A stretch of 64,000 bases of DNA. It comes from a phage. The first letter of the stretch is position 1; each line of letters starts with the position of its first letter. The translations under genes were made by a program, and so were the position numbers. Under the pieces are notes generated by a model. It was not told the DNA's origin, made no database searches, and saw only the letters and a list, made by a program, of their open reading frames with translations. The stretch lies in the NCBI GenBank assembly GCA_017686895.1, contig GCA_017686895.1_4521.1. One strand, given 5' to 3'. Shown in pieces: positions 1,336 to 53,523 of the stretch.

Positions 1336-1532
1336 ATCCTGAATCTATGTTATCGCAAAAGCTTCGTGAAGAACGTGCCGAATTCTTTGCCAATATGAAA
1401 CTCAACGGCGTTGAGGATGAAGACTTCTTACGCTGGTTCTGGATTTACAAATACAAAGAATGCCAGCACGCTGTACTATTGACTTGTGCAGCTATGTACG
1501 AAGGCTGGAAAGGCGCTAAAAAGTTCGGTTAA
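1332..1532 (+). CDS. hypothetical protein
   Basis: ATG overlaps upstream stop (ATGA coupling). Confidence 0.3.
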   Translation: MNPESMLSQKLREERAEFFANMKLNGVEDEDFLRWFWIYKYKECQHAVLLTCAAMYEGWKGAKKFG

Positions 1533-1900: not shown

Positions 1901-2233
1901 ATGTCTACTAAAATCAAAAACGTAGTTAATTCTTTCGCTTTCGATAAAGTTGTTGCTCTTCTGGAATCCGGCAATATTGTTACTCCTCAAGTTCTTGACG
2001 CGTGGGAATTCCGTCTTTATGAAATCATGCAAAAACACGACCAGAAAATTGGACGTAATTCTATTCGCGAAATTCTAGTGCAATATATTCTTTCTGAATT
2101 TGACGTTGCTGCATTTGGTGTTGAATCTAAAGCTTATCAGAAACATGAAATCTCTGAAAAGACTATCCGTCGTATGAAAAATCAACGTAAGAAAAAATTC
2201 GTTGACCTTAAAATTGTTAAGGCGGTAAAATGA
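1901..2233 (+). CDS. hypothetical protein
   Basis: ATG at 1901 after GAGGAAA SD; downstream of promoter-like cassette at 1834-1873. Confidence 0.4.
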   Translation: MSTKIKNVVNSFAFDKVVALLESGNIVTPQVLDAWEFRLYEIMQKHDQKIGRNSIREILVQYILSEFDVAAFGVESKAYQKHEISEKTIRRMKNQRKKKFVDLKIVKAVK

Positions 2234-2457
2234 GCGTATTAACAGAAACTTTGATTAATGACCTGCGTCTAGCTGGTTACGAAGTTGGTACAAATAGCCT
2301 AGGTCTTCCTCAGATTGAAGGTCCTGGATTTATTCTAGAATACGAATTCAAACAATGGTGGTTATATGCTACGGTTGATGATGCATTGAATATTGATTTC
2401 GTCGACCAATTTGATTCATTGGATGCTGCTTTATTTGCCGCAAAGGAAATAGAATGA
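2230..2457 (+). CDS. hypothetical protein
   Basis: 75-aa ORF, ATGA overlap with upstream ORF. Confidence 0.35.
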   Translation: MSVLTETLINDLRLAGYEVGTNSLGLPQIEGPGFILEYEFKQWWLYATVDDALNIDFVDQFDSLDAALFAAKEIE

Positions 2458-2612
2458 AACTATCTCGAATCGCTATAACCGAAGAAAAGTATGGTGAATT
2501 TTAAGTCGACAACTTTATGAAAGTTACGTATCTTTGATAGTATCTCGTGCTTTAAGATAGGTCTCTAAATATTATGATATAATAGACCTATGAATTGAGC
2601 TAAGAGGTACTT

Positions 2613-3170
2613 ATGACTGAACAAAAACCTAAAAATAACTATGTGAATAATAAAGAGCTTCTCGCCGCTATAATCGAGTGGAAAAAGGAGCTCTTAAATA
2701 ATAAAGACCCAAACAAAATTATTCGTCAGAATGATACCATCGGTTTAGCAATTATGCTTATCGCCGAAGGCCTGTCCAAACGTTTCAACTTTTCAGGATA
2801 TACCCAGTCTTGGAAGCAGGAGATGATTGCAGATGGGATTGAAGCCTCTATTAAGGGACTTCATAATTTCGACGAAACTAAGTACAATAACCCACATGCA
2901 TACATAACTCGAGCTTGTTTTAATGCTTTTGTCCAACGTATCAAAAAAGAACGTAAGGAAGTTGCAAAGAAATATAGTTACTTCGTTCATAATGTCTACG
3001 ACAGTCATGACGATGATATGGTAGCGTTGGTAGATGAAACGTTTATTCAAGACATCTACGATAAAATGACGCATTATGAAGAATCCGCTTATAAAGCTCC
3101 TGGGGCTGAAAAGAAGGAAGTTGTTAGCGATTCGCCTAGTTTGGATTTTTTATATGAGGATGACAATTGA
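2613..3170 (+). CDS. 55: late-transcription sigma factor gp55
   Basis: N-terminus [27 protein letters not shown] closely matches T4 gp55 as recalled; 185 aa; synteny 55-47-46. Confidence 0.9.
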
Positions 3171-17335: not shown

Positions 17336-18505
17336 ATGCAAAAAATGAATACTTTTAAAATCGGAACGAATTTTGATTTAGCTCTTCTTGATAAAATCGT
17401 AGAGCTCAATAAAACCTATCCTAATAGCTTGATAAACGAAGTATATGGCTCTACAAGAGAAATGGCTTTTGTAGCAGCCAGACCTGATTTTAGGCTTCCT
17501 GACGTTGACAAAAAGATGTTAGAAGATTACGTTAAACGTTGTAACGAATTAGGTATTTGCTTTAACTATACACTCAACACGATAAATCCTGGTTCAAAAA
17601 GAGAACTAGTTGAGTGGAAGAAGAAAGCTATTCAGGATTATGTTCAGTATCTTTGGTCAATAGGCGTATGGCGTATTACTATCGCTAACCCTGTTGTTAT
17701 GGAAATTGTTCGTGAAGTCAATAAAGATATTGAGATTGAAGTTTCAACAATTCTACATGTCGATGCGGTAACTCAAATCAAATACTTACATGACCAATAT
17801 AACATCAAAAAGGTCTGTTGCGGAATTCATAAGAACCGTTCAGTTTCTTTCCTGAAGCGTGCAGCAGAGTTTTGCAATAAGAACAATATAATATTTGAAG
17901 TTCTTGTAAATGAGTTCTGTTCTAATGCTGGTAAAGGGTATACAACACATTGTAGTTATCGTGACTCTTGCTATATTTTCCATAGTACTGATGTTACAGC
18001 TGATGATGCTAAATCCTTAAATGGATATCCAATGCAACACTGCATTAAAGCTCGTGATACAGACCCATTTAACTGGTTGAGAACTCGTTTTGTTCGTCCT
18101 CAAGATTTGAAACTTTATAATGATATTGGTATCACTCAATTCAAAGTTTCAGGACGTACAGGTAGCACAGACTACATTTTGAAAGTTCTTGAAGCATACG
18201 CTTCTGAAAAGTTTGAAGGTAATTTGTTAGAACTGTGGAAGCCTTTAGAGACTATTTTCACTCTTGAAAATGAGACTGAGTTTTCACATACAGTAAATAT
18301 TGAAACCTCTTTGTTAGATGGCTTTTTAGAAAAAAGGTGGTTCAGACATCCAGATTTTGATTGTGCTAATGAAATCTGTGGGTCAACGTGTACATATTGT
18401 GAAAGGTATTATAAACGTCAATTATCTAAAAACGGGTTAGCAGAAAACTCCATATCTATTATTGATATAACTAACTCTGATGACGCTTTGAGGTACCCGG
18501 AATGA
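17336..18505 (+). CDS. peptidase-U32-family-like Fe-S protein
   Basis: N-terminal layout and Cys-rich EFCSNAGKGYTTHCSYRDSC segment resemble U32 family; C-terminal CxxxCxxC cluster. Confidence 0.5.
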   Translation: MQKMNTFKIGTNFDLALLDKIVELNKTYPNSLINEVYGSTREMAFVAARPDFRLPDVDKKMLEDYVKRCNELGICFNYTLNTINPGSKRELVEWKKKAIQDYVQYLWSIGVWRITIANPVVMEIVREVNKDIEIEVSTILHVDAVTQIKYLHDQYNIKKVCCGIHKNRSVSFLKRAAEFCNKNNIIFEVLVNEFCSNAGKGYTTHCSYRDSCYIFHSTDVTADDAKSLNGYPMQHCIKARDTDPFNWLRTRFVRPQDLKLYNDIGITQFKVSGRTGSTDYILKVLEAYASEKFEGNLLELWKPLETIFTLENETEFSHTVNIETSLLDGFLEKRWFRHPDFDCANEICGSTCTYCERYYKRQLSKNGLAENSISIIDITNSDDALRYPE

Positions 18506-25734: not shown

Positions 25735-25983
25735 ATGGAATTATTCGTAGCTAGTTCAGTAGCAGTTTTAATCGCAGGTATTGGTTCAATCATCATTTAC
25801 ATGTTGCCTTGGGTAATCGCACTTATTCGTGGCACAAAAAGCACAACAGCAATCTTCTTTGTATCTTTACTCTTTAACTGGACGATGGTTGGTTGGATTG
25901 GAACTTTAATTTGGTCTATCGTTGCCGAAAAGAAATCTGCTCAGCAGCCTCAACAAGTAATTATTATTCGCGAAAAAGAATAA
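25735..25983 (+). CDS. imm: superinfection immunity protein Imm-like membrane protein
   Basis: 82 aa, two predicted TM helices; LPWVIALIRG...LLFNWTMVGWIGTLIWS resembles Imm family. Confidence 0.6.
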   Translation: MELFVASSVAVLIAGIGSIIIYMLPWVIALIRGTKSTTAIFFVSLLFNWTMVGWIGTLIWSIVAEKKSAQQPQQVIIIREKE

Positions 25984-27717: not shown

Positions 27718-28740
27718 ATGGCTGAATGGATAGATAATGAATTTGCTTATCGTGCGTTTTCTCACCTACCTCGTTTTAGACAAATCAATAATTCAAGCAC
27801 ATTTAAATTAACATTTCGATGTCCAGTTTGTGGCGACTCCCAGACAGATGCAATGAAAGCTCGCGGATGGTATTATGGTGGAACTCCAGGTAATGTGCAT
27901 TGCTATAACTGTCAATATCATAATACAATTTCCGGATACTTAAAAGAGTATGATGAAGAGCTTTATCGCGAATATCTAATGGAAGTTCGTAAAGAAAAAG
28001 CTAGAATGGAACCAAAGATTGAAAAGGTTCCTGAAGCTAAGCCGGAACCAGAGAAAAAGACTATAAATTCTTTGCCGTCTTGTTCTCGTCTGGACAAGCT
28101 GCCCGAAGAGCATCCTATTGTGAAATATGTTAAGTCTCGGTGTATTCCTAAAGAATCATGGAACAGATTATGGTTCACATTAGAATGGCCTAAATTGGTC
28201 AACAAGATTCAACCTGGTACGTATAAGAAAGAGATTCCCGAACCACGTTTAGTGATTCCTATTTTTAATAAAGATGGGAAGGCCGAGTCATTCCAAGGAC
28301 GTGCACTTCGTAAAGATGCTCCTCAGAAATATATCACTATTAAAGCGTTTGAGTCTGCAACAAAAATTTATGGTGTTGAACGTGTTAAGGAAGGGGACGT
28401 CTGGGTAATGGAAGGCCCTATTGATAGTTTATTCATACCCAATGCAATCGCTATTACAGGCGGCTCGATAGATTTAGATGTGGTACCATTTAAAGAACGT
28501 CGGGTATGGGTAATGGATAATGAACCTAGGCATCCGGATACTATAGCTCGTATGAAGCGATTAGTTGATGCAGGCGAACGTGTCATGTTCTGGGACCGAG
28601 CTCCATGGAGATCAAAGGATGTGAATGATATGGTAATGAAAGAAAATGCAACACCACAAGAAATTTTAGAATATATGAAACAGAATATTTCAAGTGGGTT
28701 GCATGCTAAAATGAGATTATCTCGTTATTCGAAGATTTAA
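27718..28740 (+). CDS. 61: DNA primase gp61
   Basis: WIDNEFAYRAFSHLPRF and zinc motif FRCPVCGDSQTD match T4 gp61 as recalled. Confidence 0.9.
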   Translation: MAEWIDNEFAYRAFSHLPRFRQINNSSTFKLTFRCPVCGDSQTDAMKARGWYYGGTPGNVHCYNCQYHNTISGYLKEYDEELYREYLMEVRKEKARMEPKIEKVPEAKPEPEKKTINSLPSCSRLDKLPEEHPIVKYVKSRCIPKESWNRLWFTLEWPKLVNKIQPGTYKKEIPEPRLVIPIFNKDGKAESFQGRALRKDAPQKYITIKAFESATKIYGVERVKEGDVWVMEGPIDSLFIPNAIAITGGSIDLDVVPFKERRVWVMDNEPRHPDTIARMKRLVDAGERVMFWDRAPWRSKDVNDMVMKENATPQEILEYMKQNISSGLHAKMRLSRYSKI

Positions 28741-28934
28741 ACAAGCCCTATAATAGCAAAGGCCAAATCAACTACAGTATCCAATGGAACAGAAGGAACT
28801 ATAATACCATGGGCAACTAACAATGGTGCAATCCCGAAGTTCCATGAAATAATGCCACCTACAACTATTGCAGCGATGGCAGTTTTCTTTTTATTGCCTT
28901 TAATAGCGTTGATTAACGACGGAAGTTTAAACAT
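28737..28934 (-). CDS. small hydrophobic membrane protein
   Basis: 65 aa, two hydrophobic segments; GGAG SD 5 nt upstream on - strand; only - strand gene in this + strand block. Confidence 0.4.
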   Translation of the reverse strand: MFKLPSLINAIKGNKKKTAIAAIVVGGIISWNFGIAPLLVAHGIIVPSVPLDTVVDLAFAIIGLV

Positions 28935-29022
28935 AATATCTCCTTAGTTACCTATTATTTATTACGCTTTATAAAATTAATGTTAGAATTAACTCTCTTA
29001 TACTGAATTGAAAGGAAAAATA

Positions 29023-29544
29023 ATGGCGCACTTTAATGAATGTTCACAACTTATTTCTGGTGTTGATAAAGCAGAAGAAGTTTATTTTAATGCTCTGATT
29101 CACGAAGATAAAGACCCACTTCAGGTAATGCTTGATATGCAGAAATCTTTACAGGTTCGTCTGGCAAATGACAAGCCTGAACATAACAAACATCCTGATG
29201 AATTGGCTACTGCTGGTGATGTTGTTGATTGGCTGCGTAATCAGAAAGATTATATTGATGATGAATTCCGTGAACTGTTGACTTCACTTGGTGGTATGAG
29301 CAATGGTGAAAAAGCCGCCAGCAGTGTATGGAAGCCTTGGAAAGCACAACATGCTGAATATCGAAATCGTCGTATCGATGAACTGTCTCCTGAAGACCAG
29401 CTTGAAATTAAATTTGAGATGATTGATATTCTTCATTTCGTTCTGAATATGTTCCAAGGTCTGGGTCTTTCTGCTGAAGAAATCTTTAAACTTTACTACT
29501 TGAAAAACCAACACAACTTTGAACGTCAGGATAATGGTTACTAA
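29023..29544 (+). CDS. 56: dCTP pyrophosphatase gp56
   Basis: MAHFNECSQLISGVDKA...DPLQVMLDMQ matches T4 gp56 as recalled; start at ATG 29023 rather than track TTG. Confidence 0.9.
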   Translation: MAHFNECSQLISGVDKAEEVYFNALIHEDKDPLQVMLDMQKSLQVRLANDKPEHNKHPDELATAGDVVDWLRNQKDYIDDEFRELLTSLGGMSNGEKAASSVWKPWKAQHAEYRNRRIDELSPEDQLEIKFEMIDILHFVLNMFQGLGLSAEEIFKLYYLKNQHNFERQDNGY

Positions 29545-29589: not shown

Positions 29590-29826
29590 ATGGGTGGTTA
29601 TGTAAACATCAAAACCTTTACGCATCCTGCTGGTGAAGGCAAAGAAGTTAAAGGTATGGAAGTTTCTGTTCCGTTTGAGATTTATTCAAACGAACATCGG
29701 ATTGCAGATTCTCATTACCAAATCTTTCCATCAGAAAAGGCAGCTTATTCTACTGTAGTTTCTAATGCAGCTGACTGGAAAACTAAGAACGCTGAAATGT
29801 TTACCCCTACACCAGTAAGTGGTTAA
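29590..29826 (+). CDS. soc: small outer capsid protein Soc
   Basis: GYVNIKTF...HYQIFPSEKAAYSTV matches T4 Soc; TATAAATA late promoter upstream. Confidence 0.85.
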   Translation: MGGYVNIKTFTHPAGEGKEVKGMEVSVPFEIYSNEHRIADSHYQIFPSEKAAYSTVVSNAADWKTKNAEMFTPTPVSG

Positions 29827-29835
29827 ATAATTTAA

Positions 29836-29859
29836 GGAATCCTTCGGGATTCCTTTTTT
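29836..29859 (+). terminator. intrinsic terminator after soc
   Basis: ggaatcc-ttcg-ggattcc followed by tttttt. Confidence 0.6.
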
Positions 29860-52844: not shown

Positions 52845-53504
52845 TTATTTAGCCCGCCCTAATATCCTTGCTGCTTGGTTGCATATTGCAGCCAAGCGTT
52901 CTTCATTTAGCACATCCGATCCCTTATACCAATACATAGAAACAGTTCCCGCATATATGTTATCCAAATTGAAGTAAGGACAACTATACATATACGCCAG
53001 TTCCGGAGTTTTTGATTTGGTAGGTAAGAAAGCAAAATCTGTTTTAGAAGTAAAGTGAAGTCCACTTAAATGGACCGAATATTCTGCTGTCGTTTTATCA
53101 ACAGGAAATCCTCCCATAGATTTTTCAGTTACTGTGCTAGGTAACTTACCTTCATACGCAATAAGGTCGACGAAATAATTTAGATTTTTAGGTCTGAAAG
53201 AATACACCGAACTAAAATCCGCCCTTGATGTGACGTGGACTATTTGTAGTTGTTCTAAAGCCGCAGATTCAAATCGTGTATTTCTTTCTTTTTGAATTAC
53301 TTCTGTGTAAGTATCATATTTCGACCTCACGTAATAATCCATAAAAATATTCCCTTTGTACCATATTAGTGCCATTAGGAACAAAAGAACTACAACAGCA
53401 ACTCTTGAAATAAGAATATTTCCAGAGGCGTTATCTTTGAAAATGCGGTCTAGCAACCCAAATAAAATATCACTAGGCGAAAATGATACTTTTGGTGCTG
53501 CCAT
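52845..53504 (-). CDS. t: holin T
   Basis: MAAPKVSFSPSDILFGLLDRIFKDNA matches T4 holin; start at second ATG, since the track's extra MGGN codons form the GGAGG SD. Confidence 0.9.
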   Translation of the reverse strand: MAAPKVSFSPSDILFGLLDRIFKDNASGNILISRVAVVVLLFLMALIWYKGNIFMDYYVRSKYDTYTEVIQKERNTRFESAALEQLQIVHVTSRADFSSVYSFRPKNLNYFVDLIAYEGKLPSTVTEKSMGGFPVDKTTAEYSVHLSGLHFTSKTDFAFLPTKSKTPELAYMYSCPYFNLDNIYAGTVSMYWYKGSDVLNEERLAAICNQAARILGRAK

Positions 53505-53523
53505 ATTACCTCCCATTTATCAA

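Follow-up and report, generated by a model that had tools for sequence, protein, structure and literature searches.

Genomic setting of the gene

The stretch of phage DNA analysed here, 64 kb in length and hereafter called the window, carries a short ORF on the minus strand between the genes for DNA primase and dCTPase/dUTPase. The features of this locus are the following.

28737..28934, minus strand: coding sequence of a 65-aa protein, stop included (from the ORF list and its translation), counterpart of RB69ORF029w and of dam.1 of phage T4T, member of PHROG 2024
28940..28945, minus strand: Shine-Dalgarno sequence AAGGAG, read from the sequence, 5 nt 5' of the ATG of the ORF
28737..28740, across both strands: TTAA common to the two convergent stops (TAA of the primase gene, plus strand; TAA of the ORF, minus strand)
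27718..28740, plus strand: DNA primase, gene 61, convergent with the ORF
29023..29544, plus strand: dCTPase/dUTPase, gene 56, divergent from the ORF, with an 88-nt spacer between them

The ORF starts with the ATG at 28934..28932, runs for 65 codons and ends in a TAA that is the complement of 28737..28739, while the stop of gene 61 is the TAA at 28738..28740 on the plus strand. An identical 4-nt overlap of stops with gene 61 is found in T4, RB69, VR5 and Marfa, and a GGAG or GGAGG is present at the matching position in all compared lineages of the family. Around the ORF lie homologues of T4 gp61 (27727..28737), gp56 (29023..29541) and Soc (29596..29811). The long genes from approximately 1.8 kb to 52.4 kb of the window all lie on the plus strand, and long minus-strand genes occur only from 52.8 kb onward. 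No homologue of dam or of segF (the old gene 69) was found anywhere in the 64-kb window.

The initial annotation of this locus had described a hydrophobic 65-aa ORF on the minus strand between genes 61 and 56, preceded by a well-placed ribosome-binding site, overlapping the primase stop in a convergent arrangement, alone on its strand within a block of plus-strand genes, and accompanied by neither dam nor gene 69. The ORF list, the translation, the hydropathy profile and the gene map presented above agree with this description on every point. A reading of the ORF as a replacement for dam and 69, or as an oddity of one phage, was considered and rejected: T4 has the same gene between dam and 61.

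Identity and annotation history

Over 1.9 kb spanning the ORF, the window is 98% identical to the Mosigvirus genomes of FP43 and ATK47, and it is itself a Mosigvirus, that is, an RB69-like T-even phage. The ORF protein is 98.5% identical to the RB69 protein RB69ORF029w (NP_861719.1, hypothetical protein). The two genes also agree in length, in the convergent TTAA overlap with gene 61 and in the late-promoter motif, and between RB69ORF029w, its T4T counterpart and the ORF nothing substantive differs. The profile of PHROG 2024, a family of unknown function, matches the protein with an E-value of 1.9e-27 (residues 1-65 against positions 1-65 of 65), and members from T4, from Gaprivervirus and from a second subfamily (see below) match the same profile. 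The T4 homologue, 66 aa long and 54% identical to the window protein, lies in the dam-61 interval (17738..17938, plus strand, of NC_000866); it has a strong AAGGAGG site and the TTAA overlap. In T4, dam separates this gene from gene 56, whereas the ORF of the window faces gene 56 directly. The ORF is a genuine gene of T-even phages and corresponds, in Mosigvirus, to RB69ORF029w and to dam.1 of T4T.

The gene has been recorded unevenly. T4T (HM137666.1) names the T4 homologue dam.1 (ADJ39749.1) and newer records list it as hypothetical; the T4 records NC_000866.4, AF158101.6, KJ477684-6 and MT984581 carry no annotation for the 310-bp gap between dam and 61. FP43 annotates the ORF as hypothetical and the RefSeq record of ATK47 omits it. 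The gene is thus already catalogued (RB69ORF029w, T4T dam.1, PHROG 2024) and annotated as hypothetical in hundreds of genomes, and no function is recorded for any member of the family. New in the present analysis are the recognition of the T4 gene as an orthologue and of its absence from the T4 reference annotation, the evidence for a late promoter, a measurement of purifying selection, the structure of two subfamilies with tandem pairs, and a topology model.

Searches of the literature returned no mention of RB69ORF029w, or of dam.1 alongside bacteriophage, and nothing relevant to the ORF among reports on T4 Ribo-seq, unannotated genes and new lysis-inhibition genes. Sequence searches of Pfam, NCBIfam and the PDB gave no significant match, whether the query was the protein alone or an alignment of 12 members, the best PDB hit having an E-value of 1.7. 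One family member matched an Ldr toxin with an E-value of 0.1, which was dismissed as noise.

Distribution and two subfamilies

Matches to the protein were obtained by tblastn in 693 phage records, and in 686 of these at least 80% of its length is covered. Identity is at least 95% in approximately 150 of the records (the Mosigvirus type) and 50-56% in more than 500 (Tequatrovirus); Gaprivervirus copies are 45-49% identical to the window protein. A word-indexed protein search reached close relatives only, and a scan of IMG/VR returned 7 loci. A profile search covering all of 1.84 billion representative proteins yielded three full-length clusters and three fragments, which indicates a narrow family, with the qualification that the profile was built from the subfamily to which the window protein belongs (subfamily A) and did not reach the other (subfamily B). 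Conservation in related phages had been proposed in the initial annotation as a check on the ORF, and the gene proves to be conserved in at least six genera.

In the window, RB69, T4, CJ20, VR5, Marfa and CGG4-1, the gene is convergent with gene 61 and opposite to the early-gene strand. The far side of this slot varies, with dam in T4, mobE in VR5 and other genes in Marfa. As judged from these gene orders, the gene is a constant of T-even phages in the strict sense, in place despite mobile or accessory insertions alongside. In the pseudo-T-even phage RB49 (Krischvirus, NC_005066.1), genes 56 and 61 are 14 nt apart and their junction (2009..2024 of the compared locus) contains no ORF on the opposite strand; the small membrane-protein gene is therefore confined to T-even phages in the strict sense.

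Subfamily B, paralogous to subfamily A, has the pattern MGT.FYQIWKL...LWNL.V.P.AATQ...LPQV and shares 45% identity with A over 42 residues. In Dhakavirus VR5, Marfavirus and Gelderlandvirus it is the B gene that stands in this slot, convergent with gene 61. Its members (for example VR5 gp029, YP_009205723.1; Marfa gp028) share with subfamily A the slot, the orientation, the size, the late-promoter motif and a core of Trp-Asn, Pro and Pro; they differ in the N-terminus (MGT.FYQIWKL), in the C-terminal helix and in an Asp within the transmembrane helix. A tblastn search of the whole window detected no subfamily B member, second copy or paralogue. A and B occur together in Gaprivervirus TH41 and in ESCO47-like phages, and a trace of B persists in CJ20, as listed here by coordinates of the compared loci.

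2501..2698 and 2707..2907, TH41: tandem pair in the order A-B, 8 nt apart
2305..2508 and 2501..2698, ESCO47 and a metagenomic relative: tandem pair in the order B-A, overlapping by 8 nt
2707..2760, CJ20: remnant of B only, 18 codons long

These pairs and the CJ20 remnant suggest that recombination has occurred at the slot more than once and that the two proteins may form a heteromer; the side-by-side arrangement of A and B genes would fit membrane partners.

Selection on the protein

Pairwise comparisons by the method of Nei and Gojobori gave the following ratios of synonymous to non-synonymous differences and values of dN/dS.

Window and RB69: 8 : 1, dN/dS 0.04
Window and ESCO47: 31.5 : 18.5 over 49 and 146 sites, dN/dS approximately 0.10
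Pairs within Tequatrovirus: 4-9 : 2-4, dN/dS 0.12-0.22
Pairs within Gaprivervirus: 5-20.5 : 5-18, dN/dS 0.17-0.36

Within genera, dN/dS thus ranges from 0.04 to 0.36 and the synonymous excess is clear in most comparisons. In addition, the length of the frame is constant at 65-66 codons between genera whose proteins are only 45-55% identical. Taken together, these two properties rule out a chance ORF and also rule out conservation that is due to overlapping regulatory DNA alone. The ORF is short, has no characterised homologue and is unannotated in the T4 reference and in the RefSeq record of ATK47, as would be expected of an unexpressed frame arisen by chance in an AT-rich spacer; however, conservation, purifying selection, the fixed position, the ribosome-binding site and the promoter motif described below all contradict such an origin, the probability of which we consider negligible.

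A candidate late promoter

The spacer upstream of the ORF contains a sequence of the T4 late-promoter type.

28956..28963, minus strand: candidate late promoter AATAAATA, ending 21 nt ahead of the ATG

In T4, late promoters have the sequence TATAAATA at -13 to -6 (PMC2988020). The candidate departs from this consensus at -13, where it has an A; among 50 listed T4 late promoters, 32 are perfect and nine have A at -13, the commonest variant (PMC2988020), and relatives often have T or A at this position (PMC1524935). In T4, all early and middle transcripts run in a single direction, and late transcripts are the only ones to come from both strands (PMC2988020), which favours late expression of the ORF.

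The heptamer ATAAATA is depleted approximately four-fold in the window, with 7 occurrences on both strands against 30 +/- 5 expected from shuffled sequences. Apart from the candidate, its occurrences are these.

29552, plus strand: TATAAATA, upstream of soc
53524, minus strand: TATAAATA, upstream of the holin gene t
58287, minus strand: TATAAATA, upstream of a tail-fibre gene
63321, minus strand: TATAAATA, upstream of a tail-fibre gene
52808 and 57774, minus strand: ATAAATA with no evident gene start directly downstream

Since the motif is depleted and most surviving copies stand before late genes, its presence in this genome is a strong indication of a late promoter. For any of the 7 sites to fall 15-35 nt upstream of the ORF on the right strand, the chance is approximately 7 x 21 / 128000, or 0.001.

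In each lineage (Mosigvirus, Tequatrovirus, Gaprivervirus, Dhakavirus and Marfavirus), the unit's first gene is preceded, at a distance of 19-21 nt, by ATAAATA, within a spacer that cannot otherwise be aligned. The forms found at this place are as follows.

T4: GATAAATA, with G at -13
Tequatrovirus without dam: AATAAATA
Gaprivervirus: CATAAATA, with C at -13
ESCO47 and the metagenomic relative: CATAAATA, in front of B
VR5: AATAAATA
Marfa: TATAAATA
Salmonella phage CGG4-1: ATTAAATA only, an exception to the conservation

The annotation of phage Lutter independently marks an 8-bp promoter at the corresponding place. On this evidence from sequence, the gene is very probably transcribed late, from a start near 28950. 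RNA polymerase carrying gp55, the late sigma factor of the phage, would initiate at AATAAATA and produce an mRNA whose leader of approximately 16 nt would hold the strong AAGGAG site.

The same spacer contains one more promoter-like element. On the plus strand, 28965..28989 (CGCTTTA, a 12-nt spacer and TAGAAT) has the look of a MotA-dependent middle promoter serving gene 56 and sits back to back with the candidate late promoter of the ORF. In the T4 record X01416, an early promoter for dam, P(E) 17.40, lies across the corresponding spot.

A terminator scan and RNA folding revealed no convincing terminator downstream of the ORF, so a late transcript should run on antisense into gene 61. A study of T4 by dRNA-seq reports 150 phage start sites, 22 of which are antisense (bioRxiv 10.1101/2024.04.04.588121). 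T4 is known to transcribe both strands of some sites at different times (PMC2988020). It could be argued from such two-strand transcription and from the missing terminator that the protein is incidental, and that the locus serves either to damp primase through a late antisense RNA or to hold promoter or origin elements of gene 56; the 88-nt spacer does carry the candidate middle promoter of that gene, and oriA of T4 lies within the adjoining gene 56. However, the excess of synonymous differences and the maintenance of a frame of 65-66 codons at 45-55% identity point to selection on the protein itself, and the strong ribosome-binding site is conserved. An antisense effect could add to the function of the protein and cannot be the only function of the locus; as a full account of the gene, we regard it as very unlikely.

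Predicted structure and topology of the protein

Kyte-Doolittle means over 15 residues lie between 1.2 and 2.1 from residue 15 to the C-terminus. An AlphaFold2 model, built from a 13-sequence alignment, has a mean pLDDT of 81 and places helices at residues 3-11, 15-41 and 51-62. The two longer helices correspond to the following segments of the window.

28812..28892, minus strand: predicted transmembrane helix, codons 15-41 (AlphaFold2 block with pLDDT 82-88, and hydropathy), carrying Trp31-Asn32 and Pro37
28749..28784, minus strand: predicted amphipathic acidic C-terminal helix, codons 51-62 with Asp52 and Asp56 (AlphaFold2), predicted to be periplasmic

The initial annotation had called the product a membrane protein, and hydropathy and model support the call with one predicted transmembrane helix. 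Net charge is +5 over residues 1-17 and -2 over residues 42-65, which by the positive-inside rule would put the N-terminus in the cytoplasm and the C-terminus in the periplasm. The C-terminal helix has a hydrophobic moment of 0.43, with Asp52 and Asp56 on one face. Trp31, Asn32, Pro37 and Pro47 are invariant across both subfamilies, Gly43 and Val49 are nearly so, and in the model these conserved residues map to the outer half of the membrane helix and to the periplasmic loop. In general, helices in membranes are classically driven to associate by a buried Asn, and the invariant Asn may act in this way here. A fold search of BFVD returned members of the protein's own family only.

A small, probably late protein embedded in the membrane, with a polar residue in its transmembrane helix, recalls holins and pinholins such as S68 of phage 21 and holin T of T4, and might oligomerise into holes that release endolysin, either as the holin or as a second one. 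The predicted helix at residues 15-41 and its Asn, the late-promoter motif, and a UniRef label of "Holin" on one family member (P0032, A0A482MZV5) speak for this function. The label is contradicted by the NCBI name of the same protein (hypothetical protein), and the other named members of the UniRef clusters examined have no function in their names. Moreover, no holin family of Pfam or NCBIfam matches at E-values up to 10, and the gene is not adjacent to an endolysin gene. Holins have at least one transmembrane domain, which the helix at residues 15-41 would supply, and a highly charged hydrophilic C-terminal domain, which this protein lacks: its C-terminus, ending in LDTVVDLAFAIIGLV, has a net charge of -2 and is hydrophobic to the last residue, and its basic segment is N-terminal. 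Finally, the T-even holin gene t is already present in the window (52845..53516) with a perfect TATAAATA. T4 mutants null for t do not lyse, which indicates that T4 has no independent holin. We consider it highly improbable that the protein is itself a holin.

Possible roles in the late phage cycle

Taken as a whole, the data are best explained, and in our view probably so, by a late T-even gene for an inner-membrane protein with an accessory role at the envelope. We infer the late timing, the topology, the partners and the biological role of its product from the features described above. The 65-aa protein would insert into the inner membrane with its basic, amphipathic N-terminal helix in the cytoplasm, cross it once (approximately residues 15-41), and end at the periplasmic face in a short loop followed by an acidic amphipathic helix of 12 residues. 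The most strongly conserved residues, Trp31-Asn32, Pro37, Gly43 and Pro47, all fall within either the loop or the outer half of the transmembrane helix, a placement which suggests that the protein may act through contacts between helices within the membrane, near the periplasmic face. It could pair with itself, with its paralogue in phages that carry one, or with some other membrane protein of phage or host. The role would most likely be that of a non-essential accessory in a late event at the envelope, such as the timing of lysis, lysis inhibition or the handling of secondary phages. Neither sequence nor fold searches link the protein to a pathway, their matches being confined to its own family. 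Decades of genetic work on T4, with searches for rapid-lysis mutants carried to saturation, are not known to have assigned a phenotype to the dam-61 interval, which implies that any role in lysis would be subtle or dependent on the host.

Protection at the level of the membrane is another function to be considered: the protein might block or misroute the DNA of late-adsorbing phages, as Imm does, or counter a membrane-acting defence of the host. T4 Imm (82-83 aa) is likewise a small T-even inner-membrane protein, and imm lies a few kb away in the window (25735..25983). The size and topology of the ORF product resemble those of small phage immunity proteins, and its conserved residues are predicted to lie toward the periplasmic side, where incoming DNA crosses. 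In addition, genes for interaction with the host are abundant in the region (imm, sp, AdfA/61.2, dmd), and the swapping and duplication of subfamilies (A, B, A-B, B-A) follow a pattern that is frequent among accessory genes related to host range or defence. However, the known exclusion genes of T-even phages are early and on the other strand, and a product made only late would protect little of the cycle. The Imm homologue has two long hydrophobic stretches and is encoded on the early strand, whereas the ORF protein has one such stretch and is encoded on the opposite strand. There is no sequence similarity between the ORF protein and Imm or other proteins of the window (tblastn against the whole window, no second match below an E-value of 0.3). 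We rate a protective function as rather unlikely in itself and nearly as plausible as the proposed role in a late envelope event.

Within the reading of the gene as a late accessory membrane protein, a more specific and tentative idea, which we think doubtful as it stands, is that the dam.1/ORF029w family is an overlooked late inner-membrane factor that would tune the triggering of holin T or lysis inhibition, or handle late-adsorbing phages, through Asn-mediated contacts and A-B pairing. It might have been missed because the T4 reference is without it and because its phenotype would be conditional. If a role in lysis timing, lysis inhibition or exclusion were real, the gene would be a new component of a classic system; otherwise, it would be one more small accessory membrane protein. 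More generally, the T4 reference (NC_000866 / AF158101) lacks a gene that is under purifying selection, fixed in position in at least six T-even-like genera and preceded by a late-promoter motif. Screens built on the reference gene list would have skipped it, and this likely concerns many transcriptome, proteome and knock-down studies. In practical terms, the annotation recommended for this ORF of the window is "conserved late membrane protein, function unknown".

Minor observations in related records and near soc

Two records of family members deserve comment. In Salmonella phage CGG4-1, the B copy (NC_031065.1, 13466..13690) is annotated as "dCTP pyrophosphatase", a name evidently carried over from the adjoining gene 56. 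In T4_ev240, an evolved T4 (LR597657.1), a 1-nt deletion in the AAGAAA run of the gene causes a frameshift and an early TAG (approximately 1450..1465 of the compared locus); this is either a sequencing error in a homopolymer or a sign that the gene is dispensable in the laboratory.

Just 3' of soc, the window contains one further element.

29834..29855, both strands: perfect 9-bp hairpin AAGGAATCC TTCG GGATTCCTT, with a T-run on the plus strand

This hairpin looks like the terminator that is annotated after soc in ATK47.
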